Of a stretch of DNA of 33,901 nucleotides, positions 13,894 to 30,381 are shown piece after piece; within the stretch, counting starts at the first letter, position 1, and each line of letters begins with the position of its first letter. Under the pieces are notes generated by a model, which searched no databases, was not told the DNA's origin, and worked only from the letters and a program-made list of their open reading frames with translations. The translations under genes and the position numbers were made by a program. The stretch is from contig JAGLLT010000031.1 in assembly GCA_023140385.1 (NCBI GenBank), positions 1-33,901 of the forward strand, given 5' to 3'. The stretch is from Candidatus Omnitrophota bacterium (GTDB lineage Bacteria > Omnitrophota > Gorgyraeia > JAGLLT01).

Positions 13894-13922
13894 TTGACAA
13901 GCTTACAAGTTTTTGATATAAT
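13894..13922 (+). promoter_or_regulatory. Consensus sigma70 promoter of the polysaccharide operon
   Basis: Perfect TTGACA-N17-TATAAT plus extended TG. Confidence 0.9.
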
Positions 13923-13976: not shown

Positions 13977-14159
13977 ATGTCAAAAACACACATAAGTATA
14001 CAATTAAATTATATGACCCCAAAACAGGCGGCTGAATTTCTTAACCTAAGCCTGTCCACTATAAAAAATTATATCTATTCCGGTGTTCTGAAATCGTACA
14101 AAACGCCGGGCGGGCATCACCGTATAAAAAAAGAGGATTTAGTCAAAGTTCTACATTAA
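13977..14159 (+). CDS. Excisionase/BldC-like small HTH DNA-binding protein (HTH_17)
   Basis: MTPKQAAEFLNLSLSTIKNYIYSGVLKSYKTPGGHHRI: MerR-type winged helix with T.GGH.R wing. Confidence 0.88.
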   Translation: MSKTHISIQLNYMTPKQAAEFLNLSLSTIKNYIYSGVLKSYKTPGGHHRIKKEDLVKVLH

Positions 14160-14176: not shown

Positions 14177-14911
14177 ATGAAAAAGTCTTTAGTATTTATA
14201 GTCTTTATAATCTTTTGTACCGCACTTGCGGGCTGCGCTATGCCCGGCATAAAGTCCGTCAAAAATCCCAAGCCCGGCACTATCTTTAGAGAAGCCGGAT
14301 TTGAACCGGCGGGTGATATTACGGAAGAGTATAAACTAGGCCCTGCGGATGTTGTCGAGGTACGTGTCTGGGGTTATGAGGACCTAAAGCAGGTTATCGC
14401 CGTTCCCCCCAACGGTGTACCTACGGTTTATCCTATAGGCAAAGTTAAGGCATCCGATCTTACACCCACGGAACTGCAGGAAAAGATTGCCGAGCGTCTC
14501 TCCAAGTTTGTCAAAGAGATTCCCTCTGTCACAGTAACCGTGCTGGAGTACAACTATTACCGTATTTACGTGCTGGGCGCGGTAAACAAGCCAGGGCTTT
14601 ATCAATTTAAAGGCAGGATGACGGCGCTTGAAGCCATTGCCTTAGCCGGCAACTATGATGACAGCCGCGCCGCTTTAAAGAGAGTGCAGGTGGTCAGAGT
14701 TGACAAAGATGACCCGACGACAGCCCAGGTAATTACCCTGGATATAAAACGTCTTATCCATAGCGGAGATGTTTCTCAGGATATAAAATTATATCCCAAC
14801 GACATTGTCTTTGTGCCTTCGTCCTTTGTGGCCAGTGTTAATAAAATTATTTCTGAAATTATGCCTTCAATTCAGACTATCTTCTATGTGGATAGACTGG
14901 TAAACGATTAA
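14177..14911 (+). CDS. wza: Outer-membrane polysaccharide export lipoprotein (Wza/OPX)
   Basis: Lipobox LAGC; Poly_export motif YKLGPADVVEVRVW...PIGKVKASDLTPTELQEKI; SLBB domain VLGAVNKPG; C-terminal amphipathic helix. Confidence 0.9.
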   Translation: MKKSLVFIVFIIFCTALAGCAMPGIKSVKNPKPGTIFREAGFEPAGDITEEYKLGPADVVEVRVWGYEDLKQVIAVPPNGVPTVYPIGKVKASDLTPTELQEKIAERLSKFVKEIPSVTVTVLEYNYYRIYVLGAVNKPGLYQFKGRMTALEAIALAGNYDDSRAALKRVQVVRVDKDDPTTAQVITLDIKRLIHSGDVSQDIKLYPNDIVFVPSSFVASVNKIISEIMPSIQTIFYVDRLVND

Positions 14912-14931
14912 AAATTAAGGAACCACGCATT

Positions 14932-16437
14932 ATGAACCAAAGGCTATTGGGCCCGGAAAAAGGGCGGGAGCAAGTCTCGACCTCTGATTACCTAAAGACC
15001 ATCCACAGGATAATTGTCAGGCGCCTGCCGCTTATCCTCATCCTGATTGTTGGCTGTGCTTTAGCGGCATTTGTTACCTCAAAGATAATGAAGCCCGTTT
15101 ACGAGGCATCTACCTCTCTCAGGATTCAAAAGCAGGCGGCTTTTCTGCAAGGAGCCGGCCAGCCGGTGGTACTGAGCAAAGAGTCCCTTGAAGCGGAAGC
15201 GATGTGGATTAGGTCGCGGGTCATTTTACAGACGGTGATGAATGAACTGGGTATTGGCGCTGAAGCTAAATCCAAAAAAGAGGCCTTAAAAGTTTTAGAG
15301 AAACTAAGAAGCAAGATTAAAGTAGAGGTAATAGAAGGTTCTGATGTTCTGAGAATAAGCGCCGCCTGGAATGATCCGGTATTAGTTAAAGAAATAGTAA
15401 ACACTTTATCCGATGTTTTTATAGAAAAGTACACGCTTTTTACCCGCGGCAAGGCAAAAGAGACAACCGGTTTTATCGAAGAGCAACTCGAGGTAGTAAA
15501 ATACAATCTCAAGCGCGCCCAGAACAAAGTAGCCCGCTTTCAGAAAGAAGAAAGTATTCTTTCTATCGATCAAAAAATTGCCAGCGTGAACTCTCAACTT
15601 ACCCAGCTTGAAACAAAACAAGCGGATATTAAGATGGAGCTGGAGTTAGCCAGGATGAAGAGCCGGAATCTGGGAAATAAACTTGATCTATCCGAGGATG
15701 ACCTTGAAACCTTTAAGTCCAACTACTCAGCTATCTCGGCCAACAGCATTTTATCCAATGATCTCGTCCGCAGTTTCAGAATACGTATAGCTGAAATCGA
15801 GTCAGATATAGTCTCGCTCTCCACTCTATACACCGATGAATACCCTCTGCTCATCCAAAAGAGGGAGGAGCTGAGAACATCCAAAGAAAAACTCAACAAG
15901 ACACTTTGCGATTTAGTTGGAGGCCTCGATATAGCCGACAAAGACCCGCTCTATCAGGATCAGCTGATTGAATTGGTCATCAGCCAGATACAAGTTGATG
16001 ATTTAGAGAACCAGGGCGACTCTTTAGAGCTTCTGATTACCGATATGAATAAAAAAATTGAGGTTCTACCCGATAAGCAGATAGAGTACATCAATATGGT
16101 CAGGGACGCCAGCGTCAACGAACAACTTTACAATCTCCTCCTGGCCAGATTGCAGGAGGCGCGCATCAGAGAAAGGTCAAATGAGTGGGATATCAGAGTC
16201 TTTGACCGTGCTCATCAGCCGCTGGAGCCCATTAAGCCCAGGCCCATTGCTAATACCGTTTTCGGAGCTATCCTCGGCCTGCTTTTGGGGGTAGGAGTAT
16301 CAATGATGATAGAGTACTTCGATGACTCCTTCAGAACCATAAGCGACGTCGAAGAATACCTACAGCTCCCGGTTTTAGCCGCCATCCCAAAAATCAAACA
16401 CCGGATTAAAGGGGTGGATAGGAAGAAAAAAAATTAA
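14932..16437 (+). CDS. wzc: Polysaccharide co-polymerase (Wzc/GumC membrane-periplasmic module, kinase split off)
   Basis: TM1 + PVYEAS, long coiled coil, P.EPIKP + TM2, DDSFRTISDVEEYLQLPVLAAIP tail. Confidence 0.88.
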   Translation: MNQRLLGPEKGREQVSTSDYLKTIHRIIVRRLPLILILIVGCALAAFVTSKIMKPVYEASTSLRIQKQAAFLQGAGQPVVLSKESLEAEAMWIRSRVILQTVMNELGIGAEAKSKKEALKVLEKLRSKIKVEVIEGSDVLRISAAWNDPVLVKEIVNTLSDVFIEKYTLFTRGKAKETTGFIEEQLEVVKYNLKRAQNKVARFQKEESILSIDQKIASVNSQLTQLETKQADIKMELELARMKSRNLGNKLDLSEDDLETFKSNYSAISANSILSNDLVRSFRIRIAEIESDIVSLSTLYTDEYPLLIQKREELRTSKEKLNKTLCDLVGGLDIADKDPLYQDQLIELVISQIQVDDLENQGDSLELLITDMNKKIEVLPDKQIEYINMVRDASVNEQLYNLLLARLQEARIRERSNEWDIRVFDRAHQPLEPIKPRPIANTVFGAILGLLLGVGVSMMIEYFDDSFRTISDVEEYLQLPVLAAIPKIKHRIKGVDRKKKN

Positions 16438-16449
16438 AGGGGGAAAAAC

Positions 16450-17313
16450 ATGTTTGACGGATTATTTAACAGGCGGCGCGGCTTAATCGGCCAGATACTT
16501 TTAGATGCCGGCTTGGTAACGCACAATGAACTGAAAAAGGCTATTAAGATTAGTAAGGAAAAAGGCAGCCTGCTGGGCGAGACCCTTATCCGCCTAAATC
16601 ATATCTCCGATGCTGACCTGAAAATTGCCCTTCAGGAACAGCTCTCTATGTCCATTGTGCCTATAAAAAAAGAAGACCTCGATACGTCTGAGGCAACGGA
16701 ATTTTACCGGTTGCACACCAACGTAAAGTTTGCCCTTTTTTCAGACGACCCCATAAAGTCATTAATGATTACATCTGCCGTTCCCAAAGAAGGCAAGAGT
16801 ATGACTGTTGCTTACTTCGCGCTGGTAATGGCAAATGTTATGCAAAAAAAGACACTTCTGATTGACGCGGATATGCGCCACCCCTCAATAGACCTGCAGT
16901 TTGGCTTCAGGGCGGATCACGGCCTGGCCGACCTGATGGTTGACTCTGTAACAATAGATGCCTGCATCCACGATACAGAGATAAAAAATCTAAAAATACT
17001 ACCCTGCGGCACCAAACCCCCTAATCCGGCCGCCCTCTTAGCCTCTCAGAAATTTAAAGACATTGTAGAGCACCTAAAAGAACGGTTCGATCTAATCCTT
17101 TTTGACTCCGCGCCGGTTTATCCTGTGGCCGATGCCACGCTTCTAAGCGCCAATGTAGACGCCGCCATACTCGTCATAGAGGCGGGTTCTACCAGAAGAG
17201 GCGTTGTCAAGCGGGCAGTAGACAGCCTCAAAGAGTCAAACGTCAAAGTATTAGGCACCATACTAAATAAAGTAGAAGCCGAACTATCAAAATACTCCTA
17301 CGCTGGATATTAA
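16450..17313 (+). CDS. CpsD/CapB family BY tyrosine kinase with N-terminal MshEN-like domain
   Basis: Walker A SAVPKEGKS, A' LIDADMRHP, B ILFDSAP, C-terminal KYSYAGY; residues 12-64 follow the MshEN 24+5+24 pattern; strong SD AAAGGGGG. Confidence 0.88.
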   Translation: MFDGLFNRRRGLIGQILLDAGLVTHNELKKAIKISKEKGSLLGETLIRLNHISDADLKIALQEQLSMSIVPIKKEDLDTSEATEFYRLHTNVKFALFSDDPIKSLMITSAVPKEGKSMTVAYFALVMANVMQKKTLLIDADMRHPSIDLQFGFRADHGLADLMVDSVTIDACIHDTEIKNLKILPCGTKPPNPAALLASQKFKDIVEHLKERFDLILFDSAPVYPVADATLLSANVDAAILVIEAGSTRRGVVKRAVDSLKESNVKVLGTILNKVEAELSKYSYAGY

Positions 17314-17333
17314 ATAGCGGATACCATATTGCA

Positions 17334-17694
17334 AATGGCTAAGAGCAATGAGCTATCAGTTATTTGTTTTACACGCTTTACGCTGTTTTATTTTGCTTTT
17401 TTATCGTATTTACCATGAGCCATCAGCCATGAGCTATCAGCTATTTGTTTTATACGCCTTTTTATTGTTTTTACCATGAGCCAAGAGCTATGAGCCATCA
17501 GCTCTTTGTTTCTTATTTTTTGTTTTGCACGCTTTACACTTTGCGCTTTTCGCTTTTACCATGAGCCAAGAGCTATGAGCCATCAGCTCTTTGTTTAATG
17601 CATTTGAACATTAGAGTTTGTAATTTATTTAGGGTTTAGATATTAGAATTTAGGATTTTATTTACTTTTGTCTATACGCTATACGCTAAACGCT
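17334..17694. repeat. Composite heptamer tandem-repeat array inside the operon
   Basis: Four blocks of 4x A(T/A)(G/C)AGC(T/C) at ~17334 (degenerate), 17415, 17476 and 17561; exact 43-bp duplication 17469-17511/17554-17596; TTTAGGG-TTTAGAT-ATTAGAA-TTTAGGA at 17628-17655; ATACGCT-ATACGCT-AAACGCT at 17674-17694. Confidence 0.9.
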
Positions 17695-17725
17695 GTGTTT
17701 TTGGGTAGGTTTAAAGATATATGAT

Positions 17726-18346
17726 ATGAAAATACAAGTTGAAGCATCACATTATAATTTAGGATACGATTCAAAGGAGCGTTTCTGTAGCTACTGGCAT
17801 CAGATTAATGAAATAACTAAACTTAATCCACAGAATGTTCTTGAGGTTGGTATTGGCAATGGTTTTGTTTCTGAATACCTTAAAAAGCATGGTTTAAATA
17901 TTACAACTGCTGATGTCGATAAAGGTTTAAAGCCGGATATCGTTGCTTCGGTTTTAAGTTTACCTATCTCGGATAATGTGTTTGATGTGGTTGTTTGTTA
18001 TGAAACATTAGAACATATGCCCTATGAAAATTTTAGCAAAGCTCTTTTGGAATTAAAAAGAGTGTCTAAGAAGTATGTACTTATATCATTACCTGATGTT
18101 CATAAAGTCTGGAGATATGTAATTCACATACCAAGATTTAAAGAGATTATGAAATTAATATATAAGCCACGGATTAAACTGCCGGAGCATATATTTGATG
18201 GGCAGCATTATTGGGAAATAGGAAAAAAGGGATACGCGCTTAAAAAAGTTAGTAAGGATATTTGCGCTTGCGGTTTTAAGATATCAAATACATACAGGCC
18301 GTTTGAGATTACTTATCATAGATTTTTTGTTTTAGAAAAGGTATAA
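17726..18346 (+). CDS. Class I SAM-dependent methyltransferase
   Basis: VLEVGIGNG motif I; FDVVVCYETLEHMP. Confidence 0.88.
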   Translation: MKIQVEASHYNLGYDSKERFCSYWHQINEITKLNPQNVLEVGIGNGFVSEYLKKHGLNITTADVDKGLKPDIVASVLSLPISDNVFDVVVCYETLEHMPYENFSKALLELKRVSKKYVLISLPDVHKVWRYVIHIPRFKEIMKLIYKPRIKLPEHIFDGQHYWEIGKKGYALKKVSKDICACGFKISNTYRPFEITYHRFFVLEKV

Positions 18347-18357
18347 GGAAGAATTGC

Positions 18358-19857
18358 TTGAATATTAAAAAATTTTTACAGTCTAAGTTTAAAGGGTTGT
18401 TTTCTATAGAAGGTACTTTGTCTCAGAAGGCTGCCAGAAGCGGCGTCTGGGTGTTTGGGTCGTTTGGCTTTAGTAAAGTATTATTCTTTGTTCAGACAAT
18501 TATTTTGGTGAGATTACTTACTCCGGAAGATTTTGGTTTAATGGGACTATGTTATGTGGCCATTGGAGCAATGGCTGTATTTACTGAAACCGGCTTTGGG
18601 CATGCTCTAATTCAAAGGAAAAAGTATGATGATGATGCGTTAAACACTGCCTGGGTTATAGGAATTATTAGGGGGGTGGTACTTTTTTTACTTTTATTTA
18701 TTTTTGCTCCATCAATTGCTAAATTTTATGACAGTTTACTGATTGAACCTATACTAAGGATAATTGCTATATCTTTTTTATTTTATGGCTTTGGTAATGT
18801 CGGGCTTATTCTTTATAGCAAAGAGCTAAATTTTAAGAAAAAGATTGCTTATGACCAATTGGGAGCTATATTATCAATTATTATTACCGTAGCCTTAGCT
18901 TTTTGGTTAAGAAATGTCTTTGCGTTAGTTTTAGGGCATATTGCTGGTGCAATAGTGGGTGTTAGTTTCTCATATCGAGCACATCCTTTTAGGCCTAAAT
19001 TTAGATTTAAAGTAGACATTGCAAAAGAATTATTTCGTTTTGGTAAACATATCTTTTTTATGGGTATTGCCATGTTTGTAATTACCCAGGGGGATGATGC
19101 TTTAGTTGGTAAATTATTAGGTATGAGTGCCTTAGGTTTTTATTTACTTGCATATAAACTATCAAATTTACCGGTTACCTCAATAACGCATGTTGTTTCA
19201 AGTATAAGTTTTCCCGCATATTCTAAGGTGCAGGATGATGTAATTAGGCTTGAAAGGGGATATTTAAAAATACTTAAAGGTACTTCTTTTTTTGTTATTT
19301 TAGCCGCCTTTTTATTATTGGTATTAGCTCCTGAATTTATTCAAGTCGTATATGGTGATAAATGGCTTCCTATGGTTCCGGCAGTTGTGGTTATGTGTTT
19401 TTTGGGGTATTTTAGGGGTATTTCAGCAACTATGGGGCCTGTTTTTACCGCAATTGGAAAACCCTATATATTAAGCAAAATAAAACTTAGTGAATTGATA
19501 TTAATGGTATGCATTATTTATCCTTTAACCCTTAAGTTTGGAATAGTTGGAGCTAGTATTGCGGGGACATTAGTATATTTTTTGAGTTTTATTCTACATT
19601 ACTATTATCTAACGGGAGTTATGAAGGGCATTGGTTATAAAGTGGCAAAAATAATATCATTGCAAACTATTGTGGCTATTTTAGCTGGCACTATAATTGT
19701 TGTCATTAAAAAGTATTTATTGATGGATGTTAGTTTGGTTAATCTTGTACTTTTATTGTTAATTGGTAGTGGTTTATATATAGGTGTTAATTTAATTGCT
19801 GATAAGAATATTATTAAAAATTGCAAGGAACTATATTTATCTATCAAAAGTGTATGA
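18358..19857 (+). CDS. wzx: Polysaccharide flippase (Wzx, WzxC/PST-like)
   Basis: LVRLLTPEDFGL, LFRFG, D.LVGKLLG..ALG.Y, FPAYSK.Q, YGDKWLP; many TM segments. Confidence 0.88.
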   Translation: MNIKKFLQSKFKGLFSIEGTLSQKAARSGVWVFGSFGFSKVLFFVQTIILVRLLTPEDFGLMGLCYVAIGAMAVFTETGFGHALIQRKKYDDDALNTAWVIGIIRGVVLFLLLFIFAPSIAKFYDSLLIEPILRIIAISFLFYGFGNVGLILYSKELNFKKKIAYDQLGAILSIIITVALAFWLRNVFALVLGHIAGAIVGVSFSYRAHPFRPKFRFKVDIAKELFRFGKHIFFMGIAMFVITQGDDALVGKLLGMSALGFYLLAYKLSNLPVTSITHVVSSISFPAYSKVQDDVIRLERGYLKILKGTSFFVILAAFLLLVLAPEFIQVVYGDKWLPMVPAVVVMCFLGYFRGISATMGPVFTAIGKPYILSKIKLSELILMVCIIYPLTLKFGIVGASIAGTLVYFLSFILHYYYLTGVMKGIGYKVAKIISLQTIVAILAGTIIVVIKKYLLMDVSLVNLVLLLLIGSGLYIGVNLIADKNIIKNCKELYLSIKSV

Positions 19858-19863: not shown

Positions 19864-20898
19864 ATGAAAATAGCATTATTAGTTAGTCAATTACCAAGTC
19901 GTTGCAAGCATGGTCCCGCATATCAAATGCACTACCTTGCGAATCATCTTGTGCAAAGAGGGCATGAGATTACCGTATTTTCAATGGATCCTAAGCCGGA
20001 TGATGCTTTATATAATGTAAGAATAGTTAAAGTTAAAGATAGATTTAAAATATTTAGATATATGTGGGCTTTAAGCAGAATAGATTATTCCGCATTTGAT
20101 GTACTACATGCGTCCGGAGACGATGCTCTTTTATTTCTTTCGAAAAATAAGCCCCCTCATGTAAGAACGTTTATGGGTTCAAGTTTATCTGAAGCATTTC
20201 ATATGTTTAAACAACCCAAGCAATGTTTGAAAACTTTCGTTTTAGCTTTTTTTGAATATATTTCTATATTTGTTGCTGATAAATGTGTATTGATTTCTAA
20301 AGGAACACGTAGATTTATTCCTTTTGTGAGGGATGTAGTTTATTGCGGGGTGGACACTAATAGATTTAAGCCCGGAAATGAGAAATCAGATAATCCCTCA
20401 ATCCTTTTTGTTGGTACTTTAGGGTGGAGAAAAAGAGGGAATATGCTGGTTGAAATTTTTAATAAACAAATTAAAACAAAAATTCCTAACGCTGAGTTAT
20501 GGCTTGTTGCAGATCGGGATGCTAAGGGAGAAGGTATTGCAAATTATAGCAAAGTTAGCACTGAAAAATTAATAGAGCTATATCAAAAAGCATGGGTTTT
20601 TTGTTTACCCTCTACGTATGAAGGATTTGGTTTGCCGTATGCAGAGGCTATGGCATGCGGCACACCAATTGTTGCTTCACCTAATTTAGGCGCTAAAGAG
20701 GTTTTAGGAAATGGTAAATATGGAATTGTTGCCAATGATAATCGACTGCTGGATGCATTATTAGGTTTATTGCAAAATGAGGAATTGAGAAAAGAATATG
20801 CCCAAAAAGGCTTAGATCGCGCAGAAGAATTTGATTTTAGCAAAATCACAACTGAATACGAAAATCTATATTATGCATTTACTAATAACTCAAAGTGA
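19864..20898 (+). CDS. Glycosyltransferase family 4
   Basis: PSTYEGFGLPYAEAMACGTPIV. Confidence 0.92.
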   Translation: MKIALLVSQLPSRCKHGPAYQMHYLANHLVQRGHEITVFSMDPKPDDALYNVRIVKVKDRFKIFRYMWALSRIDYSAFDVLHASGDDALLFLSKNKPPHVRTFMGSSLSEAFHMFKQPKQCLKTFVLAFFEYISIFVADKCVLISKGTRRFIPFVRDVVYCGVDTNRFKPGNEKSDNPSILFVGTLGWRKRGNMLVEIFNKQIKTKIPNAELWLVADRDAKGEGIANYSKVSTEKLIELYQKAWVFCLPSTYEGFGLPYAEAMACGTPIVASPNLGAKEVLGNGKYGIVANDNRLLDALLGLLQNEELRKEYAQKGLDRAEEFDFSKITTEYENLYYAFTNNSK

Positions 20899-21911
20899 AA
20901 GTTAAATTTAATATGTATAAAATATTTGATGAATTTTTAGAGAGAAATTGTATGAGGCTTGGGAAAGCATTCGGTAGGTTGTTAAAAAATCTACCGCAAA
21001 GTATAACAATAAAAATATCAAAATTATTACGAAAGTGCGAATATTTTCCAGTTGCATTAAGATGTCCCGTAACTATATTTGCTTATAATGTTATCAAATT
21101 TATGTATTTCGCAAATAAAACACCAGTTATTTTAAAGAAAGTTCTGTTTGATGGCAGTATAATGAAGCTAGATATAACAGATCATACACAACAATTGATA
21201 TATTTATGGAAGTTATATGAGCCTCCAACAACAAAGTATATAAATACCAACTTGAGGGAAGGTGAGATATTTATTGATATTGGTGCAAATGTTGGTTATT
21301 ACACTCTTTTAACAGCAAAGATAGTTGGCCCTTCAGGAAAAGTTTATGCCTTCGAGCCCGAAGTTAAGAATTTTTTAGCCCTCAAAACAAATCTTAGCAT
21401 TAACAATATTAAGAATGCAATGTGTTATCAAAAAGCCGTTGCTGATAGAGTAGGTACAATGAAATTAAATCTTAATCCTTTGAATAAGGGAGGTCATAGC
21501 TTAAATCAATTTGAGCAATATTCCGGAGATGCTTCAAAAAGTTATACATTGCAAGAAATAAAAGTATTATATCCTAATGCAAAATTTCAGCAAGAAGTAA
21601 GTGTGATTACTATGGATGAATTTTTATCACAGATGATAGATTCCTCTTTTGATTTTTCTGATATTTCTCTTATTAAAGTCGATGTTGAAGGCGCAGAAGT
21701 TAATGTGTTAAGAGGCATGCAAATGCTTCTTAGTTTAGATAGAGCCCCAAAGATCATTTGTGAAGTAAGTAGTAAAAATTGTGAAGAGATAAATTCTATA
21801 TTAGCAAAATTTGGATTTAAAGTGTTTAACTTAAGCAATAATGGTCAGCCTATGGAATGTATGCTTGAGGAAGATATGTGTCCAGGCAATTTTGTATTTA
21901 TTAAGGAATGA
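20895..21911 (+). CDS. FkbM family methyltransferase
   Basis: FIDIGANVGYYT, VYAFEP, IKVDVEGAE..VLRG; exact start uncertain. Confidence 0.9.
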   Translation: MKVKFNMYKIFDEFLERNCMRLGKAFGRLLKNLPQSITIKISKLLRKCEYFPVALRCPVTIFAYNVIKFMYFANKTPVILKKVLFDGSIMKLDITDHTQQLIYLWKLYEPPTTKYINTNLREGEIFIDIGANVGYYTLLTAKIVGPSGKVYAFEPEVKNFLALKTNLSINNIKNAMCYQKAVADRVGTMKLNLNPLNKGGHSLNQFEQYSGDASKSYTLQEIKVLYPNAKFQQEVSVITMDEFLSQMIDSSFDFSDISLIKVDVEGAEVNVLRGMQMLLSLDRAPKIICEVSSKNCEEINSILAKFGFKVFNLSNNGQPMECMLEEDMCPGNFVFIKE

Positions 21912-21951
21912 TATTACACTTAAAAATTTATTATGGCGAATTAAAGATATT

Positions 21952-22839
21952 ATGAAAAAAAATAATCCATTAGTTTCAATAATTATTCCTACTTATAATC
22001 GGTCAGACGTTTTAAAAAAGTGCCTATTGCATTTAAATGAACTTACATATAAGAATTTTGAGGTCATAATATCTGATGCAAGCGATAACGATGCATCAGA
22101 AAAAGTTACATCTCATATTTGTCCGCAAGCTATATATTTTAAAGTAAGTCCTGATAGAAAAGGATGTATTACTCAGCGCAACGATGTATTTGATAAGAGT
22201 AAGGGTAGTATTATTGCCTACATTGATGATGACAGCCTGGTATTTCCTGACTGGTTAAATAAGATAGTAGATACATACACACTATCTGACGATGTTGGAG
22301 GAGTGGGCGGTAGGGCTTTGCGAGGGGATATTCTTTACTGGGACGGCAAGACACCAATAGGAAGAATAAATCCTGATGGGTATTTAACGGAAGGTTTTGA
22401 TGGTAATTGCGGAGAAGTTATAGAGGTGGACAATTTGATTGCATGCAACATGAGTTATAAAAGGAATGCTTTAGAAAAAATAGGCGGATGGGATGAATGG
22501 TATGATTGTGAACGCGCCGAAACTGATCTTGCTATTTGTGTTAAGAAGGCAGGATATCGAATACTATATAATCCAAAAGCATTAGTTGATCATATAGGAT
22601 CACCCAGGATAGATACAAAACGTTTTAGTTTATTATATGACTATCGAACCCAGAGAAATCATGTATATATGTTAATTAAAAATTATGGGGTTTTTAGTAA
22701 GATATCTATATTTTATTTGACTAAAAGTACAATTATGGAAACGTATAAATGTGCAGGCAGAATAGTAAAAAGTGTTTTGAGATTAATATTAAATCAAACG
22801 GCTAAAATAATTGGATTAGTTAGAGGTATATTAAAATGA
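21952..22839 (+). CDS. Glycosyltransferase family 2
   Basis: PLVSIIIPTYNR, AYIDDD; start moved from 21841 to the ATG at 21952 (MKKNNPLVS). Confidence 0.9.
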   Translation: MKKNNPLVSIIIPTYNRSDVLKKCLLHLNELTYKNFEVIISDASDNDASEKVTSHICPQAIYFKVSPDRKGCITQRNDVFDKSKGSIIAYIDDDSLVFPDWLNKIVDTYTLSDDVGGVGGRALRGDILYWDGKTPIGRINPDGYLTEGFDGNCGEVIEVDNLIACNMSYKRNALEKIGGWDEWYDCERAETDLAICVKKAGYRILYNPKALVDHIGSPRIDTKRFSLLYDYRTQRNHVYMLIKNYGVFSKISIFYLTKSTIMETYKCAGRIVKSVLRLILNQTAKIIGLVRGILK

Positions 22840-23768
22840 ATCGTAAACCCTTAGTCAGCATCATAATTCCCACGCATAATATGGCCAAATTTTTACAATT
22901 ATCTGCTGGTAGTGTATTGAAGCAGACTTATAAAAATTTTGAACTTATTATTGTAGATGATGCTTCTGAAGATAATACCGAAGAAATTATTAAGCAATTC
23001 AACGACAAAAGAATTAAATATATTAAGCGTGATCAAAAAGGTGGGGTTTCATCTGCAAGAAATTGTGGAATTGATAACTCTCGCGGTGATTATATAGCCT
23101 TCCTGGATGCTGATAATGAATGGATGGAAAATAAATTAGAAAAGCAGATGTTTAAATTCGAGAATGTTTCCGATGACGTGGGGCTTGTATATACTCATTA
23201 TTTAGGCATATTCCTGACGTCTGGTGAAGTTATATGCGAATTTAAAGGATGTTATTCGGGAGATGTTGAAGCTGATCTCGCAGTAGGCTGTTTTCTAGGA
23301 GTTTGTGCCGTAATTATTAGAAGAAAGTGTATAGAAAAGGTTGGATATTTTGATCCTGACGTAGATTATAATGAAGACTGGGATTTGTGGCTTAGAATCG
23401 CAAAATACTACAAGTTTGATTTTATTCCGGAATTTTTAGCTAAATATTATGTTCACGGCAACCAGCTAAGCTGTAATCTTAGCCCCATGGTAGTTGCTTG
23501 GGAGAATTTTTTAGATAAGCACAAGGATATGTATGAAAAAATGCCTTCTATTTACAGTATGCATTTGGATTATTTGGGGCGAATATCATGCTTTGATGAT
23601 CAGTTTAAGAAAGGCAGGGGATACTTTTTAAAATCTATTAAGTATAAACCTGTACAAAAAAGCGGCTATCTTAATTTGGGATTATCTTTTATATCCTCTA
23701 ATTTACACAAAAACTATATAGATAAAACACTCTTTAAGAAAAAAAATGGAATAAGGCTATATAAATGA
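22836..23768 (+). CDS. Glycosyltransferase family 2
   Basis: VSIIIPTHN, IIVDDASED, AFLDAD, EDWDLWLR. Confidence 0.92.
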   Translation: MNRKPLVSIIIPTHNMAKFLQLSAGSVLKQTYKNFELIIVDDASEDNTEEIIKQFNDKRIKYIKRDQKGGVSSARNCGIDNSRGDYIAFLDADNEWMENKLEKQMFKFENVSDDVGLVYTHYLGIFLTSGEVICEFKGCYSGDVEADLAVGCFLGVCAVIIRRKCIEKVGYFDPDVDYNEDWDLWLRIAKYYKFDFIPEFLAKYYVHGNQLSCNLSPMVVAWENFLDKHKDMYEKMPSIYSMHLDYLGRISCFDDQFKKGRGYFLKSIKYKPVQKSGYLNLGLSFISSNLHKNYIDKTLFKKKNGIRLYK

Positions 23769-24706
23769 ACTGTACTCCGGTTGTCAGCGTTATAATCCCT
23801 ACATATAATAGGGCTGAGTTTTTACCTAGAGCAATTAATAGTGTGCTTAATCAGACATTTAAAGACTTTGAACTCATCATTGTAGATGACGGATCTACAG
23901 AAGATATTAAGAGCGTTGTAAATGCTTTTAATGACAATAGGATGAGGTATATAAGACACAATATTCCCAGGGGAGCTGCCTCAGCAAGGAACACAGGAAT
24001 AAAATACGCAAATAATGATTTCCTTGCTTTTTTAGATGACGATGATGAATGGAATGAGGATAAGCTTCTATTGCAGATCCAAGAATTTGAACGAGCAGAT
24101 GAAAAAGTTGGCCTTGTATATTCTGACATGATTAGAATTAATGACATAACAGGTCAAATTATGAATGATAATGTAAAGCATTACAGTGGCGATATTTCAA
24201 AAGAAATAATTACTAATTGTTTTATTGGTAGTCCTACTTATATGATTAAAAAAAAGTGCTTTGACAAAATTGGCCCCTTTGATATCGAATTACCAGCGCA
24301 TCAAGAATGGGATTTATTTATTCGACTTTCTGATTATTATGATGTCTTGTATTTGCCTCAAAAATTAGCAATATATCATATGCATGGCGATCAAATCACC
24401 ACATCACTTGTGAAAAAGATAAAAGCTTGGGAGATAATACTAAAAAAGCATCAAATGAAGTTCCTTAAAAATTCAAAAGTCTTCAGTTCTTTTCTGCTAT
24501 ATTTAGGCAAATTATACATTTTGAACGATGATTATTTAAAAGGATGTAAATTATTTTGGAACTCAATCAAGATATGTAAGTTACAGAAAAAAGTGTATTT
24601 TTATTTAATATTAAATTATTTGAATAAAAATATTCTCAAGAGAGTGATAACAAATAATACTATGCATATTAACAAAAATTTTTCATTTAAAAAAAAGGAT
24701 AACTAA
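23765..24706 (+). CDS. Glycosyltransferase family 2
   Basis: VSVIIPTYNRA, IVDDGST, AFLDDDDEW. Confidence 0.92.
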   Translation: MNCTPVVSVIIPTYNRAEFLPRAINSVLNQTFKDFELIIVDDGSTEDIKSVVNAFNDNRMRYIRHNIPRGAASARNTGIKYANNDFLAFLDDDDEWNEDKLLLQIQEFERADEKVGLVYSDMIRINDITGQIMNDNVKHYSGDISKEIITNCFIGSPTYMIKKKCFDKIGPFDIELPAHQEWDLFIRLSDYYDVLYLPQKLAIYHMHGDQITTSLVKKIKAWEIILKKHQMKFLKNSKVFSSFLLYLGKLYILNDDYLKGCKLFWNSIKICKLQKKVYFYLILNYLNKNILKRVITNNTMHINKNFSFKKKDN

Positions 24707-25300
24707 ATGCAAGATATTATTAAAAAGTTAATAAAAAGGTTTACTGATAACAATATTTTGTGTAATGATATTCAAATTATGATTGCTTTTGCAAAAGGTT
24801 ACATGGTTAAGCTGCGTCATATATTTAATCATAAGGTTAAGATAGGTAAAAAATTTAAAGTGTTCAAAGGATTTAAAATTGAAGGCGGCGGAGTTGTAAC
24901 AATTGGCGATAATGTTGAAGTGCATGATTTTTCTCGAATTATAGTAGCAAAAAATAAAGCGAAGGTTGTAATAGGCAATAATGTTATCTTGAATAATTGT
25001 ACTTTTTATAGTTGGGATAGTATTACTGTTGGAGATTTTTGTTTATTAGTTGGAGGATATTCTGATACAGATAGTCACAGTATTTCCATTGATAGGAGAA
25101 CAAATCCGAATGCAATTGTTAATGTATCACCTATTATTATCGAGGAGAATGTATGGGTTGGTACAAATTCAATAATATTAAAGGGAGTCAAAATAGGAAG
25201 AAATTCAGTTGTTGGAGCTGGATCAGTTGTGACTAGAGATATTCCTGAAAATTGTGTTGTAGCTGGAAATCCAGCGAAAGTTATTAAACATATAAAATGA
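24707..25300 (+). CDS. Hexapeptide-repeat (LbH) O-acyltransferase
   Basis: [44 protein letters not shown]. Confidence 0.9.
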
Positions 25301-26442
25301 AAATATTAATAATACCTAGCGTATATAAGCCAAATATCGGTGGCGTTGAAGAATTCACAGCAAAATTATCTAAATTTTGCAATGAAAAGGATCACAATGT
25401 TTTTATTGCAACCAATAAATGGCCATCAAATTTAAGTGCGCATGAATTGATTGATGATGTTGAAGTTAATAGATTTAATTTCTTTTTGCCTAGTAAAAAA
25501 ATAACAGATATTTTAAAATTTTTGTTCTCATTTCCAATCAGTTTTATTAAATTTTTGACATATTTGAAACGGAAGAAGTTAGATATAGTAAATATTCAGT
25601 GCGTAAGTTCTAATGGTTTTTATACACTTTTGGCAAAAAAGATACTTAGATTTCCTTTAGTTGTTACGCTTCAAGGTGAAACCGTAATGGATGACTATGA
25701 TATTTATAATAAATCTGCATTGATGAGATGGACGTTAAAGCGATTGATGAAAAAAGCTGATTGGATAATAGCTAACTCATCTTATATCTTAGAAGATGCG
25801 TTAAGCAGATTTGGCGGAGATAGGAGTAAATGCAGTATTGTTTATAATGGTGTCGATTTAGAAGAATTTAAGGGAGTTGAGCCTTATAGGTACCATAAGA
25901 CATATATATTCGCAACAGGCAGATTAGTTTATAAAAAAGGTTTTGATTTGCTTGTAAAAGCGTTTAGTAAGATAACTGATAAATATGAGGACGTAGATTT
26001 ATTAATTAGTGGAAGAGGAGATTTTGAGCCGGAATTAATTAAGCTTATAACTGCATTTAAATTAACTAATAGAGTATTTTTGTTAGGCCCCGCGGATAGA
26101 AATAAAAATGTCTCGTTATTTAAAGGTTGTGAATTTTTTGTTATGCCATCAAGATTAGAACCATTTGGCATTGTATGCTTAGAGGCAATGGCGGCCGGAA
26201 AGCCGGTTATTTATACAAAAAATGGAGGCACTAAGGAGTTTGTAAATGATGACTTTGGAATTCAGGTTGACCCTGAAAATATAGATGAATTAAGTAAAGC
26301 CCTAATAAGCTTACTGTCAGATGATGAAAAATGCAAAGACATGGGCAAGAAAGCCAGAGAAGAAGTAAATAAATTCAATTGGCCCATTATATCTCAGCAG
26401 TATATCGAATTGTATAAAAAGGTCTTAAAAGAAAATGCCTGA
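25297..26442 (+). CDS. Glycosyltransferase family 4
   Basis: [38 protein letters not shown]. Confidence 0.92.
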
Positions 26443-27352
26443 AAATGCGTTAGTTAGCATAATTATTCCTACATATAATCGAGCTCGGATTATTAAAAGA
26501 GCCGTTAAAAGTGTACTGGAGCAAACGTACACTAATTTTGAATTGATCATTATTGATGATGGCTCTACTGATAATACTGCAGAGATTATTAATTCGTATA
26601 AGGATGAAAGAGTTATTTATATAAAGAATAATAAAAATTCAGGCCAAACAATTGCCCGAAATATTGGCCTTAAAAAGGCAAAAGGTGAATATATAGCTTT
26701 TTTAGACTCTGATGATGAGTGGCATATTGACTATTTAGAGAAGCAAGTTGCAGTTCTGAATGAATTATCAGATGAATATGGACTTGTGTACTGCAAATGT
26801 AAAAGATTAGTCAATAATAAGGCATCGTTTATTCCATCGAGAATAATTAAGGAAGAAGATATAAAGGTTGAATGGTTAAAAGAAAATTTTACAACTCTGC
26901 AAGCAGTATTGCTTAAAAGACAATATCTTAAGGAGTGTGGTTATTTAGATGAACGGATGACAGCCATAGAAGATTGGGATTTCTTTATAAGATTATCAAA
27001 TATATGTAAGTTTAAGTATAATGACGAAATTTTAGTTACTATGCACGCAAGCGCAGATGGAGCCAATGACAACATAACTAACCGCATAATGGCTAGGGAA
27101 TATATATTAGAGAAGAATAAAGATGTTCTAAAGATTTATCCTGAAGTATTAGCGAACCACTTTTATATACTTGCGATTGAGTACGCTTTTTTAAAAGACA
27201 GGGAAAATATAATTAAATGTGCCAAGAAAGCATTAGAATTAAAGCCAAAAAATAAAATATATCATTCAATGCTTTTTTTAGTAAATATTAATGTAAACTT
27301 ATTAGTTTTATATCTAAAACTACAAATTAAATTAAAGAATTTATTTAAATGA
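26435..27352 (+). CDS. Glycosyltransferase family 2
   Basis: VSIIIPTYNRA, IIDDGSTD, AFLDSDDEW, EDWDFFIR. Confidence 0.92.
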   Translation: MPENALVSIIIPTYNRARIIKRAVKSVLEQTYTNFELIIIDDGSTDNTAEIINSYKDERVIYIKNNKNSGQTIARNIGLKKAKGEYIAFLDSDDEWHIDYLEKQVAVLNELSDEYGLVYCKCKRLVNNKASFIPSRIIKEEDIKVEWLKENFTTLQAVLLKRQYLKECGYLDERMTAIEDWDFFIRLSNICKFKYNDEILVTMHASADGANDNITNRIMAREYILEKNKDVLKIYPEVLANHFYILAIEYAFLKDRENIIKCAKKALELKPKNKIYHSMLFLVNINVNLLVLYLKLQIKLKNLFK

Positions 27353-28578
27353 ACAAGAAAAAGATATTACTGTTAATTTTAGTATTGGTTTATTTGGGTT
27401 TGGCAATTGCATATGCCTTGACCATACCGGCTTGGCAGCCCTACGATGAAACCGGTCACTTTTATTACATTAATTATTTAACAGAAAATAATAATCTACC
27501 TGTTATGCCGGAAGAGCCAGGCATGCTATACGAAGCCCATCAGCCTCCTGTTTATTATTTTATAGCGAGTTTGATGCAAAGATTTACTATAGGAAGCGAC
27601 TACGTAAGTCAGGTGTTATATTTAAGGTATTTGTCAATATTTATTGGTTTATTTACAGTTATCATTGCATATAAATGCGCAATGATAATATTTAAAAATG
27701 ACAGTATCTTATCTTTTATTGCTACATCGATAATAATATTTAACTCAACTTTTTTAGCTGTTAATAGTACTGTTTGCAATGATGGTTTAATGATTTTATT
27801 ATGCTCTTTAGCTATATATCTATTTATTAGGGAACTAAAATGTAAAACGGTCAGTTACAGAAATGTTTTATTAATTGGTGTTTTATTAGGAATATCACTT
27901 TTAGTAAAATTAACTTCAATTATTGTTTTAGCTTCAATAATTTTAGGTCTATTTTATTGCAATATTATTAAAGAAAATAAATATAAAAAGTTTATTATTA
28001 ATGTTACTTGTTTAGCTTTGCCTGTTTTGTTGATGAGTAGTTGGTGGTACATAAGAAATGTAAATCTTTATGGTGCTATTGTTGGTTATCAAAGCATGGT
28101 AAAAGATCCTGGAAATAGTTTATTGAGCTTGAACGGATTCAGTATATTTTGGAAGGTTGTTTTTTGTACGTTTTGGTATCCATATCAATATTTAAGAAAT
28201 GATCCAATGGCAAAGCCTCAACCGTTTATTTATTTAATCTGGAGCATTTTAAGTGTTATGGGTATTTATGCAGTTATAAAAGAATTAATCAATAGTATTA
28301 AAAATAAAGTTTCTTTAAGCTGCATTATAAGTTTTATAATTTTTTGTATCATTCTAATCCTATTGGCCCAAACTTATACTATGTGGCGAGAAGGCAGGCA
28401 TATGCTCAATGTTTTTATTCCCATTGCTATAGTTATCGCTATGGGAATAAAAAACTTACGCGTTAATAAAATATTAAGTGCATACGTAATATTTGTAGTT
28501 TTATTACTGATAAATATCTATATCATTAGTAACAACTTAGCTCTTATTGAATATAAAACGTTTTTAAACCCATTTTAA
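27349..28578 (+). CDS. Polytopic membrane protein, GT-C fold (PMT/ArnT-like, DUF2142-like)
   Basis: TM1 followed by PAWQPYDETGH (DE motif), HQPPVYY, ND, LVK, WWYIRN..LYG. Confidence 0.7.
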   Translation: MNKKKILLLILVLVYLGLAIAYALTIPAWQPYDETGHFYYINYLTENNNLPVMPEEPGMLYEAHQPPVYYFIASLMQRFTIGSDYVSQVLYLRYLSIFIGLFTVIIAYKCAMIIFKNDSILSFIATSIIIFNSTFLAVNSTVCNDGLMILLCSLAIYLFIRELKCKTVSYRNVLLIGVLLGISLLVKLTSIIVLASIILGLFYCNIIKENKYKKFIINVTCLALPVLLMSSWWYIRNVNLYGAIVGYQSMVKDPGNSLLSLNGFSIFWKVVFCTFWYPYQYLRNDPMAKPQPFIYLIWSILSVMGIYAVIKELINSIKNKVSLSCIISFIIFCIILILLAQTYTMWREGRHMLNVFIPIAIVIAMGIKNLRVNKILSAYVIFVVLLLINIYIISNNLALIEYKTFLNPF

Positions 28579-28580
28579 TT

Positions 28581-28643
28581 ATGTTATCAATAATTATAGT
28601 TAATTATAACGGGAAGCACTTAACGCGGGATTTTGGCAAATGA
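28581..28643 (+). pseudogene. 20-codon 5' remnant of a GT2 gene (MLSIIIVNYNGKHLTRDFGK*)
   Basis: Matches the N-terminus of the 29461 GT2 (MKLSIIIVNYNGKELT); its TGA overlaps the next ATG (ATGA). Confidence 0.75.
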
Positions 28644-29464
28644 ACCAGCTATTAAAAGAAAAAATAGAAGGCATCGCTCCTTTATTAAGTGACCTTGAGC
28701 GAAGAACGTATTTCAATTTACACCAATACAGATATCTGCATACTTTAAGTGAATTACAGTTGTTATGTAAAAGCGGCAAAGTTTTAGATGTAGGTATCGC
28801 CCCCGGGCATATGGCTATGGCTTTAAGCAGGCTGGGGTATGAGGTTAGCGGTGTTTCGTATGATCCGGATAGCAACTTTGCTGACTACAAAGACAAGACA
28901 ACATTAAGAGAGAGGCTTGCCGCGGAAGATATCGTAGTTAAAAAATGCGATATACAGAGTGAACCCCTTCCATTTGAAGATAACACCTTTGATATTATTT
29001 TATTTACAGAGATATTAGAACATTTGGAACAATTTCCCAATATGATTTTAAAAGAGATAAATAGAGTACTTAACAAAAAAAATGGCTATTTAATTTTAAC
29101 AACCCCCAATGCTTCTCACTTAAGCAATAGATTAAAGTTTATGCTGGGACACAATATCTATACAAGTGTTGAGACTATGTGCTCTCTGCCTATTTATAAG
29201 CGGCACAATAGAGAATATACGATGGAAGAGCTAAAGAGATTATTAAAATACACTAATTTTGAAGTAATAAAAAGCAAATACGAGAGTTATTACTTTAGGA
29301 CTACCAAACTTAAGGAAGAGGTGGATGGGCTAACACTGATTAGCCCTAATTTGAGTTTTAAGTATTTAAAGTCGTATTTAAAGCTATTTTCTTGGCCATT
29401 AGTTACGATGTGTCCCAGCCTAAAACCTAACTTATTCGTTATAGCAAAGGTTGCACAGATATGA
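28640..29464 (+). CDS. Class I SAM-dependent methyltransferase
   Basis: VLDVGIAPG, LPFEDNTFDIILFTEILEHL, LTTPN, HNREYT. Confidence 0.88.
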   Translation: MNQLLKEKIEGIAPLLSDLERRTYFNLHQYRYLHTLSELQLLCKSGKVLDVGIAPGHMAMALSRLGYEVSGVSYDPDSNFADYKDKTTLRERLAAEDIVVKKCDIQSEPLPFEDNTFDIILFTEILEHLEQFPNMILKEINRVLNKKNGYLILTTPNASHLSNRLKFMLGHNIYTSVETMCSLPIYKRHNREYTMEELKRLLKYTNFEVIKSKYESYYFRTTKLKEEVDGLTLISPNLSFKYLKSYLKLFSWPLVTMCPSLKPNLFVIAKVAQI

Positions 29465-30381
29465 AACTATCAATAATAATAGTTAACTATAATGGAAAAG
29501 AATTAACGCTTAATTGCTTAAAGTCTATATATGAAAAACTCAAAGGCGTAGAGTATGAAACTATTTTAGTTGATAACGCTTCTTCTGATGATAGCGTAGA
29601 GGTGATAGAAAAATCTTATCCGCAAGTTAATGTTATCAAAAATGATGATAATTTAGGATTCTCCAAAGCTAATAATCAAGGGATTAAGATTGCTAAAGGA
29701 GATTATATACTACTTCTTAATAATGATACTTTGTTAAAAGAGGGAGATTTTAGTAATCTTTTAGAATATATGGAGAGTAAGGCAGATGTTGGTATTTTAG
29801 GCTGTCGCATAAACAATCCTGATGGAAGCTTGCAGCTTTCTTGTTATAAATTTCCCAGTATGCGGGAGATGTTTACACACTATACTTTATTAACAAAATT
29901 ATTTCCTGATAGCAAGTTATTCGGGGATTATAGGAACTGGCCGCATAATAAAATTGAAGAGGTTGATTTTGTTATCGGGGCATTCTTTTTGATAAAGCGG
30001 GCAGTGATTGAGAAAATAGGTATGCTTGATGAAAATTTCTTTTTAAACGCGGAAGAGTCTGAATACTGCCTGAGGGCCAAAAAAGCCGGATTTCAAACAG
30101 TATTTCATCCCGGATATGAAATTATCCACATAGGTGGAGCAACTAAAAAAAATATGAAAAAAATAGAGATTATTTCATCAATTAGGGGCACAGAACTTTT
30201 AATAAGAAGGCACTATAGCTTGGTATATTTTATTACATATAAATTGTTATCCTTTTTACTGTCATTGATCAGGTTTGTTATTTTTGGTATTGTTTTACTT
30301 TTAAGTAAAAATCCTGATGTCAGAGATAAGTTTATTCAGAGCAAATACTTAATATTGTACCGGGTGGGACTGTTTAGATGA
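29461..30381 (+). CDS. Glycosyltransferase family 2 (GT2_like_c / WbbL-like)
   Basis: SIIIVNYN, VDNASSD, NLGFSKANNQG, LLNND, LDENFF. Confidence 0.9.
   Translation: MKLSIIIVNYNGKELTLNCLKSIYEKLKGVEYETILVDNASSDDSVEVIEKSYPQVNVIKNDDNLGFSKANNQGIKIAKGDYILLLNNDTLLKEGDFSNLLEYMESKADVGILGCRINNPDGSLQLSCYKFPSMREMFTHYTLLTKLFPDSKLFGDYRNWPHNKIEEVDFVIGAFFLIKRAVIEKIGMLDENFFLNAEESEYCLRAKKAGFQTVFHPGYEIIHIGGATKKNMKKIEIISSIRGTELLIRRHYSLVYFITYKLLSFLLSLIRFVIFGIVLLLSKNPDVRDKFIQSKYLILYRVGLFR

Follow-up and report, generated by a model that had tools for sequence, protein, structure and literature searches.

The kinase gene and its N-terminal leader

The window analysed here is a 33,901-nt stretch of contig JAGLLT010000031.1 from assembly GCA_023140385.1 of an uncultured Candidatus Omnitrophota bacterium. 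Near its middle, within a row of genes for exopolysaccharide production, lies a gene that encodes a tyrosine kinase of the bacterial class (BY-kinase) whose N-terminal leader is a module of the MshEN type, a family of receptors for cyclic di-GMP (c-di-GMP). The features of this gene and its surroundings are presented in Table 1. The start of the gene is secure because a Shine-Dalgarno sequence, placed immediately 3' of the stop codon of the upstream gene, precedes the ATG by 6 nt and because the reading frame (291 aa) is open for just four codons further upstream. None of these four codons is ATG, GTG or TTG.

The translation of residues 12–64 was identical to the string quoted in an earlier description made from the letters of the window (the sequence-only reading), and most of what that description had reported was found in place. 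This included the strong ribosome-binding site fixing the start, two 24-residue motifs (L12–S35 and L41–Q64) joined by five residues (K36–S40), Leu at both motif Arg positions, Ser at the first terminal Gln and three Arg just upstream (R8–R10). In comparison to the reference motif, RLGxx(L/V/I)(L/V/I)xxG(L/V/I)(L/V/I)xxxxLxxxLxxQ, the position-3 Gly and the hydrophobic positions were in register in both motifs, whilst position 1 was Leu in both (L12, L41) and motif I ended in Ser35. The hydrophobic core had been called exact; its register stood, but one deviation had been overlooked, namely Asn50 at the turn-Gly position of motif II (G47 in VcMshE). The extended consensus (R/K/L)LGxxhhxxGhhxxxxLxxxLxxQ was matched at L12, G14, G21, L28, L41, L42, G43, L57, L61 and Q64, with conservative changes at I13 and I32 and with S35 (Gln expected) and N50 (Gly expected) unmatched. 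At least two Lys/Arg stand just ahead of motif I in all 18 aligned members of the clade described below, and a published figure legend (Fig. 1) describes a comparable positive patch for VcMshE.

Table 1 Features of the MshEN_N kinase gene and of the surrounding polysaccharide locus (window positions).
Feature	Position	Strand	Evidence
Sigma-70-like promoter candidate (TTGACA, 17 nt, TATAAT with TG)	13894..13922	+	12/12 hexamer matches
60-aa HTH_17 DNA-binding protein, first open reading frame (ORF) of the row	13977..14159	+	PF12728 8.9e-14, 51.9 bits (cut-off 27)
Wza/OPX-type outer-membrane polysaccharide export protein	14177..14911	+	Poly_export + SLBB; TIGR03027 119.3 bits (below cut-off 180)
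Polysaccharide co-polymerase (chain-length determinant), membrane partner of the kinase	14932..16437	+	Wzz + GNVR; TIGR03007 173.1 bits (below cut-off 278.85)
Shine-Dalgarno AGGGGG	16438..16443	+	6 nt 5' of kinase ATG; read from sequence
MshEN_N + BY tyrosine autokinase gene (P0001)	16450..17313	+	Single ORF, 287 aa, ATG start
Basic patch R8–R10, directly ahead of motif I	16471..16479	+	Translation
MshEN motif I, aa 12–35 (L12 I13 G14 ... G21 ... L28 ... I32 ... S35)	16483..16554	+	Translation, NF053729 match, alignment
5-residue linker, aa 36–40 (K36–S40)	16555..16569	+	Translation, alignment
MshEN motif II, aa 41–64 (L41 L42 G43 ... N50 ... L57 ... L61 ... Q64)	16570..16641	+	Translation, NF053729 match, alignment
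Flexible linker, bundle to kinase, aa 65–84	16642..16701	+	pLDDT <50 at residues 66–73 in model
BY-kinase P-loop domain, aa 85–276	16702..17277	+	TIGR01007, PDB sequence and Foldseek matches, motifs
Walker A (K116)	16777–16800	+	AVPKEGKS
Walker A'	16855–16884	+	LLIDADMRHP
Walker B	17089–17115	+	DLILFDSAP
C-terminal tyrosine cluster Y282, Y284, Y287	17293..17310	+	In last six residues of translation
Wzx-type MOP flippase	18358..19857	+	NF007773 208.1 bits (below cut-off 273)
Glycosyltransferases, methyltransferases, one acetyltransferase (repeat-unit building row)	19864..30381	+	Profile matches
Wzy_C/O-antigen-ligase-like membrane protein, candidate polymerase	30378..31724	+	PF04932 90.1 bits (cut-off 31.7)

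Identity of the leader domain

The leader was matched by the NCBIfam model NF053729 ('cyclic di-GMP-binding domain, MshE-related') over residues 13–64 and model positions 2–53 of 53 (E 5.8e-12, 45.2 bits), above its curated cut-off of 38 bits; the same module scored 48.5 bits in a six-frame search of the genome. Searched against the PDB, the single kinase sequence retrieved VcMshE (5HTL, E 1.3e-7) and PilF (7.1e-9). A profile of 14 family N-termini retrieved PilF (6f8l, 6e-34), VcMshE (5htl, 4.3e-16) and PilB (5tsg/6olj, 1.8e-13), and matched PilF in four stretches, covering the three consecutive GSPII domains of that protein. The NfrB model aligned to residues 9–87 (E 1.4e-5).

The profile check proposed by the sequence-only reading for the first 70 residues thus supported the assignment by way of NF053729. 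The Pfam model T2SSE_N (PF05157) had no match in the whole protein, in residues 1–100 or in the 14 family N-termini; in the whole protein, Pfam recognised just the P-loop half (AAA_31, 3.8e-9), and it matched DUF4388 weakly in 10 of the 14 N-termini (best E 0.0011). We presume that the T2SSE_N model includes the MshEN_C half, which is absent from the kinase leader. The missing Pfam match was not taken as evidence against an MshEN domain, as NCBIfam and the PDB profile search agree.

An AlphaFold2 (AF2) model of residues 1–80 predicted a four-helix bundle (helices 13–19, 25–38, 42–48 and 54–67) with pLDDT 87–94 across residues 11–60. The ten best Foldseek matches of this model were all c-di-GMP-bound entries of PilF GSPII-B or MshE, with a root-mean-square deviation (rmsd) of 0.7–1.0 Å over 53–55 columns, including 5htl_B (0.7 Å over 55 columns, probability 1.00). 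Owing to the shortness of the domain, their E-values were no better than 0.06–0.2. In a VIA-align comparison with 48,161 chains, five GSPII/MshEN-type domains came first (5htl, Z 10.7; 8pdk, Z 9.9; 6f8l, Z 9.6; XpsE, Z 7.9; PilB-N, Z 7.7), followed by an unrelated chain (Z 6.6). A word-indexed search with the same 80 residues returned four proteins among 49 candidates, each of them the query itself or a near-copy. The structural match anticipated for residues 12–64 is therefore borne out at the level of the predicted fold, and homology of the leader to MshEN_N is settled as far as computation can settle it.

The kinase half

BY-kinases are defined by a Walker A motif with its Lys, a Walker A' motif (DxDxR) and a Walker B motif. 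All three and the tyrosine cluster were present in the gene product, which matched TIGR01007 (CapB/CpsD type) over residues 85–287 at 183.1 bits (cut-off 108.05), in agreement with the intact CpsD/CapB kinase described earlier. CapA1B1 (4jlv) was the match in the PDB sequence search (8.5e-35 for the kinase domain) and led the Foldseek search (2e-19), followed by VpsO, Wzc, BceF and Etk; by sequence and fold, the nearest solved relatives were CapA1B1, BceF, VpsO, Wzc and Etk. Scores for two other kinase families fell below membership. TIGR03029 (EpsG) aligned over residues 13–273 at 131.4 bits (cut-off 313.8), and TIGR03018 (XrtA-associated tyrosine autokinase) reached 142.7 bits (cut-off 230.65). 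The gene product is thus predicted to act as a tyrosine autokinase in the cytoplasm, paired with a separately encoded co-polymerase in the manner of CapA/CapB. By profile and structural match together, the reported fusion is real: an intact BY-kinase carries an MshEN-type module.

Conservation and distribution of the architecture

Full-length relatives of 279–311 aa and 41–96% identity were found in metagenomes, the nearest named one (96%) coming from 'Candidatus Omnitrophica bacterium'. All nine relatives scanned passed the NF053729 cut-off (38.7–68.7 bits; P0004, P0009, P0013, P0016, P0017, P0018, P0122, P0129 and P0121), compared to none of nine other BY-kinases (P0019, P0074, P0089, P0073, P0108, P0130, P0234, P0143 and P0123). 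In one relative, P0121 (781 aa), the co-polymerase (20–484), the MshEN module (505–556, 52.3 bits) and the kinase (577–778) are naturally fused into a single protein. At its junction, the same tail sequence as in the co-polymerase of the window runs straight into the MshEN module.

Conservation was assessed in an alignment of 20 sequences, 18 from the clade and two EpsG. The position-3 Gly of both motifs, the exact 5-residue linker and the turn Gly of motif I were kept in 20/20 homologues and the terminal Gln of motif II in 16/20, whilst the motif II turn was Gly in 16/20 and Asn in 4/20. Of the 120 residues at the stacking positions, all but three were hydrophobic; the exceptions were one Pro and, in the EpsG rows, two Ala. 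Motif I began with L, R, K, I or S, and motif II with L, Y, R or M. Each of the 18 clade members had both the Lys of Walker A and a tail rich in Tyr; neither EpsG row had such a tail.

A FastTree phylogeny of kinase domains was inferred from 81 rows. These were 19 MshEN kinases, two EpsG and, from a further 240, every fourth sequence; two near-duplicates were left out. The 19 kinases with an N-terminal MshEN module formed one clade (SH-like support 96), with P0121 nested inside. This clade spans down to 32% identity, so the module has been kept for a long time. Its nearest neighbours on the tree, P0089 (by its TIGR03018 score) and P0117 (by its source name), are of the XrtA-associated type.

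An exhaustive HMMER search retrieved 48,538 proteins at E <= 1e-10, and an N-terminal module occurred in four of the 150 best representatives (P0009, P0121, P0122 and P0129). In three further representatives of these 150 (P0159, P0222 and P0229), the kinase match is split into two or three stretches and the N-terminal profile matches the gap at 22–40 bits, placing an MshEN-like motif inside the kinase domain; the MshEN/BY-kinase pairing therefore recurs in different layouts. The full-length form was present in 3/31 related genomes: the source genome, a genome from the same genus (96%) and a third from a different family (63%). In the remaining genomes, kinase matches did not begin before residue 42, and mostly began at about residue 73, or no kinase was matched. 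A search of species genomes for related loci yielded at least 600 stretches, 596 of them encoding relatives, of which the best 80 were mostly ordinary BY-kinases. Eight loci with a match starting before query residue 60, two Omnitrophota loci (L064 and L039) and one locus from a separate search were translated for reading. Among these eleven, only L116, which is EpsG-like, had an MshEN-like leader, and the other N-terminal overlaps were ordinary Wzc linkers.

A split co-polymerase/kinase pair in a polysaccharide locus

Genes for export, co-polymerase, flippase, glycosyltransferases and a Wzy_C-type protein surround the kinase gene, which confirms the placement of the fusion inside a locus for exopolysaccharide or capsule. 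The co-polymerase gene, which carries the coding sequence of a cytoplasmic C-terminal tail, ends 12 nt 5' of the kinase start. On the 3' side, methyltransferases come first, followed by the Wzx-type flippase, glycosyltransferases, the acetyltransferase and the Wzy_C-type protein. Nowhere in the window was a phosphoglycosyl transferase for the initiating step recognised. The locus is annotated as a Wzx/Wzy-type exopolysaccharide locus with a split co-polymerase/kinase pair. An XrtA/PEP-CTERM-linked locus was considered and rejected: the export, chain-length and ligase models all scored below their cut-offs, and both exosortase genes lie on other contigs. Rfam and tRNA scans of the window found nothing, so by those models there is no c-di-GMP riboswitch at the locus.

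c-di-GMP enzymes and kinases in the genome

The assembly (1.50 Mb, 57 contigs, 92.7% complete) contains seven GGDEF loci, six HD_5 (HD-GYP-type) loci, seven PilZ matches, ten NF053729 matches, three BY-kinase loci and, elsewhere in the genome, one gene for a phosphatase of the low-molecular-weight protein tyrosine phosphatase (LMW-PTP) type. EAL domains had no match in this 92.7% complete assembly. By its predicted gene content, the genome is able to make and break c-di-GMP, and breakdown seems to rest on HD-GYP enzymes. Seven of the ten NF053729 matches fall in PilB/GspE-like frames of 551–582 aa, one in a 181-aa frame, one in a 708-aa frame (below cut-off) and one in the kinase. Across the PilB-like paralogues, the first motif positions are P/L, Q/L, K/F, M/L and L/R; Arg is rare in this lineage.

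Only one of the three BY-kinase loci, the gene at 16450–17313, carries the MshEN module. On another contig (C10; L130 and L143), a second split co-polymerase/kinase pair with a 257-aa kinase lacking an MshEN leader is followed by a flippase gene and lies about 16 kb from an exosortase gene. This pair offers a natural internal comparison for the MshEN-bearing system.

Relation to known systems

The leader shares with VcMshE MshEN_N (5HTL) and Thermus thermophilus PilF GSPII-B (8PDK, 8PE0) the two 24-residue motifs, the 5-residue linker and the four-helix bundle; Gly at position 3, both hydrophobic triads and the Gln that ends motif II are likewise retained. Like PilF GSPII-B, it lacks Arg at position 1, and its Leu/Leu pair is the state of the K167L variant of that domain. 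In contrast to both, it sits on a BY-kinase rather than on a PilB/GspE secretion ATPase, has no alpha/beta MshEN_C, and carries Ser for the motif I Gln and Asn for the motif II turn Gly.

The same order of parts, an MshEN-like leader and then a Wzc-like P-loop domain, occurs in EpsG from the methanolan cluster of Methylobacillus (NCBIfam model TIGR03029, named 'chain length determinant protein tyrosine kinase EpsG'), which is likewise encoded beside an EpsF-type co-polymerase; P0080, a true member, scores 347.4 bits with TIGR03029. However, in the two EpsG sequences examined the Lys of Walker A is replaced by Arg and the Tyr tail is missing, whereas the kinase of the window has K116 and three terminal Tyr. 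EpsG also falls outside the MshEN-kinase clade on the kinase tree, whose backbone is weak. The EpsG-type relatives look like pseudokinases.

The sequence-only reading had named no characterised example of the fusion. None was found here either, but the architecture itself is not unseen: in the founding MshEN paper of 2016, the characterised proteins of this family include one for 'exopolysaccharide biosynthesis in Methylobacillus sp.', with Yoshida 2003 as the source (PMC5013675), and TIGR03029 spans the leader. The architecture was thus predicted in 2016 via EpsG-type relatives and the idea is not new; what is new is the variant with a catalytically intact kinase. In the library of papers searched, no BY-kinase was described as binding c-di-GMP or as responding to it.

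Other relatives share one half of the protein. The kinase domain is homologous to those of Staphylococcus aureus CapA/CapB, Streptococcus CpsC/CpsD, VpsO, BceF, Wzc and Etk, and the CapA/CapB and CpsC/CpsD genes show the same split, with the co-polymerase tail adjoining the kinase start. The solved BY-kinases matched here align only from about residue 70–104 onward and have no counterpart of the MshEN leader. No nucleotide second messenger was reported to bind kinases of the CapB/CpsD/VpsO/BceF/Wzc/Etk type in the literature searched. NfrB of Escherichia coli resembles the window protein in placing an MshEN module on a polysaccharide-making protein. It is a glycosyltransferase with a C-terminal MshEN domain that is activated by c-di-GMP (PMC8669469), and so a synthase-type enzyme, in contrast to a kinase of a Wzx/Wzy-type pathway. 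P0159, P0222 and P0229 are Wzc-type membrane proteins in which the motif interrupts the P-loop domain, whereas the window gene encodes a clean N-terminal module on a soluble kinase.

Possible ligand binding and a proposed route to the kinase

Whether the leader binds c-di-GMP turns on how its departures from the classical motif are weighed. Leu at both first positions is no sign of degeneracy, because Lys/Leu and Leu/Leu forms of PilF GSPII-B bind tightly: the native domain (K167/L196) has a dissociation constant (KD) of 6 nM and K167L one of 2 nM (Neissner et al., JBC 2024, PMC11731258). Arg at these positions weakened binding (K167R, 150 nM; L196R, 23 nM), and the authors extended the consensus to (R/K/L)LG... 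and regard a hydrophobic first residue as a predictor of very high affinity (PMC11731258). The PilF GSPII-B data remove the main argument for degeneracy, Leu for both Arg. Isolated MshEN_N (residues 1–62) is reported to bind at 0.35 µM (PMC5013675), and therefore no C-terminal subdomain is needed. Published work describes MshEN as specific versus c-di-AMP and mononucleotides. In PilF GSPII-A, Ile for Leu at the equivalent motif II positions had a 2.4-fold cost together, and Ser at motif II position 1 abolished binding (PMC12002112).

Several observations weigh against binding. Ser35 replaces the motif I Gln; at the corresponding position of PilF GSPII-B, Q190E caused a 158-fold loss, and only the double Gln mutant lost binding entirely (PMC11731258). 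Across the 20 aligned homologues this terminal position is variable (K 7, Q 5, S 3, R 3, A 1, M 1). Asn50 replaces the motif II turn Gly, and Gly-to-Leu/Ile changes of turn glycines in MshE lowered binding according to a published legend (Fig. 3d). Restoring the full consensus in PilF GSPII-A left it silent; binding required, in addition, the removal of subdomain contacts and of a helix 1 that was elongated and capped (PMC12002112), a case which shows that a near-consensus sequence is no guarantee of binding. In the full-length AF2 model, helix 1 runs unbroken through residues 3–19, a feature of non-binders, whereas it is broken at residues 10–12 in the model of residues 1–80; this continuity was given little weight. 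The EpsG relatives score below the NF053729 cut-off (25.0 and 30.3 bits, versus 45.2 for the window kinase), and mean pairwise identity is lower in the module (0.43) than in the kinase (0.59), meaning that the module evolves faster. Weighing both sides, we lean towards a module that would bind c-di-GMP.

The proposed mechanism starts from the identity of the domain, the intact kinase motifs, the gene context, the c-di-GMP enzymes of the genome and the conservation of the module across the clade. The first 64 residues would act as a stand-alone MshEN_N (GSPII) four-helix module that binds one c-di-GMP molecule. Contacts would be made by the Gly backbone amides G14/Q15 and G43/E44 and by the hydrophobic triads I13/L57/L61 and L28/I32/L42, with Leu12 and Leu41 stacked on the outer guanine faces and Gln64, and more weakly Ser35, on the ribose-phosphates. 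Because the module sits between co-polymerase tail and kinase in the fused P0121, the ligand might change the docking of the kinase on that tail, or ring assembly. An altered cycle of autophosphorylation and dephosphorylation would then change the pacing of polymerisation and export. Binding, its affinity and any effect on the kinase, in whichever direction, are inferred. A predicted complex of the bundle (residues 1–72) with the kinase domain (residues 78–287) scored 0.26 and 0.13, against a mark of 0.32, values that speak neither for nor against docking of the two. Binding of c-di-GMP by the leader, altering kinase docking or assembly and with it export, is the best explanation we can offer, and one we hold at about even chances. 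We propose more tentatively, as somewhat less likely than not, that the clade comprises working, catalytically intact c-di-GMP-gated tyrosine kinases whose Leu/Leu MshEN_N binds at nanomolar to low micromolar concentrations and sets the autophosphorylation/ring cycle.

The four-helix module could instead be a ligand-independent docking piece that holds the soluble kinase on the co-polymerase or another partner, with no sensing of c-di-GMP, much as the GSPII domains found on certain secretion ATPases attach to other proteins. The position of the module in P0121, exactly between co-polymerase tail and kinase, is a natural site for such a tether, and the structural matches included a Xanthomonas PilB N-terminal domain whose structure (7lkm) was solved with a PilZ protein bound. 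The off-consensus Ser35 and Asn50, the variable end of motif I, the faster evolution of the module and the existence of silent near-consensus copies such as PilF GSPII-A would also suit it. However, a mere tether would need neither the position-3 glycines nor the 5-residue spacing, both kept in 20/20 sequences, nor solvent-facing hydrophobic triads, nor the basic patch. The changes listed for the non-binder XpsE (G11V, I19R, L29R, G40L, L54H, L58C and Q61V; PMC5013675) all correspond to consensus or like-hydrophobic residues in the kinase leader; only R38 differs, and Leu there is the residue of a proven binder (PMC11731258). We consider a pure docking role less likely than c-di-GMP sensing, to which it is the strongest competitor.

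Two other readings account for less of the evidence. The module might bind another nucleotide signal, 3'3'-cGAMP or a linear dinucleotide: VcMshEN is described as binding cGAMP more weakly (published legend, Fig. 1h), and Ser35 and Asn50 could reshape one half-site. Against this, the backbone positions that read guanine (the position-3 Gly and the next residue) are kept in both motifs, MshEN discriminates against c-di-AMP and mononucleotides as cited above, and c-di-GMP enzymes are ample in a genome in which no search was made for cGAMP synthases; another ligand is improbable. That the leader is a chance match of amphipathic helices, or is never made because translation starts downstream, draws on the missing T2SSE_N match and the modest Foldseek E-values. 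It sits badly with an NF053729 score above cut-off, with 5HTL retrieved by both the single sequence and the profile, with conservation of the leader in 18 clade members and the fused form, and with a Shine-Dalgarno sequence ahead of an ATG that has no alternative start codon in the four open codons upstream. As far as sequence statistics go, a chance match is refuted, and this reading is hardly credible.

Significance of a possible c-di-GMP-responsive kinase

Direct control of polysaccharide output by c-di-GMP is textbook knowledge for synthase-type systems such as cellulose, and Wzx/Wzy-type systems are paced by a tyrosine kinase with poorly known input signals. A 2025 review of capsule assembly mentions c-di-GMP for synthase-type systems only (PMC12220298). 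If true, the proposed sensing would be the first case in which c-di-GMP directly controls a Wzx/Wzy-dependent polysaccharide pathway at the post-translational level; to date, such control has been described for systems that depend on a synthase. Being small, soluble and intact, with a clean N-terminal module and a fused relative, the kinase would make a simple test object for a switch from second messenger to tyrosine phosphorylation. With this module one could also examine whether, as published, very tight binding goes with a hydrophobic residue at the start of the motif. The gain would lie in a better-suited and, by its motifs, apparently catalytically competent example rather than in a new principle, making the gene mainly a convenient test case.

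Further features of the locus and of related genomes

The candidate promoter stands 55 nt ahead of the HTH_17 ORF, which is followed in the row by the genes for export, co-polymerase and kinase. Among 11 sites in 12900–18400 it alone was perfect; as shuffled sequences averaged 12.7 sites, it counts as no more than a match to the consensus. The 60-aa HTH_17 protein is a candidate locus-specific regulator. Between the kinase gene and the next gene, a 412-nt gap (17314–17725) holds three to five degenerate direct repeats of about 61–85 nt. The copies at 17395–17450, 17456–17511 and 17541–17596 share a core of CCATGAG/CCATCAG heptads, and Rfam had no match in the gap; the array is possibly a set of binding sites ahead of the downstream genes. 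The last ORF (31711–33900, at least 730 aa) runs off the end of the window and has two GT4 glycosyltransferase domains in tandem, seen as two stretches matched by many GT4 models.

Elsewhere in the genome, a region of contig C9 at about 52–60 kb (L119, L123, L124, L005 and L007) encodes two MshEN PilB-like ATPases, the 181-aa MshEN-only protein and two GGDEF proteins within about 8 kb, and looks like a local c-di-GMP/type IV pilus hub. The 181-aa protein also has Asn at the motif II turn. Bare modules of the MshEN_N type were found in 399 of 401 Omnitrophota genomes sampled, with several copies in each. These comprised ATPase frames of about 570 aa plus many frames of 150–200 aa, seemingly MshEN-only proteins. 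One further frame (L010, G261:C49; 1465–2352, 295 aa) has an MshEN-type start and, by eye, a PilZ-like RxxxR ... (D/N)xSxxG end, which would place two c-di-GMP receptor modules in one protein.

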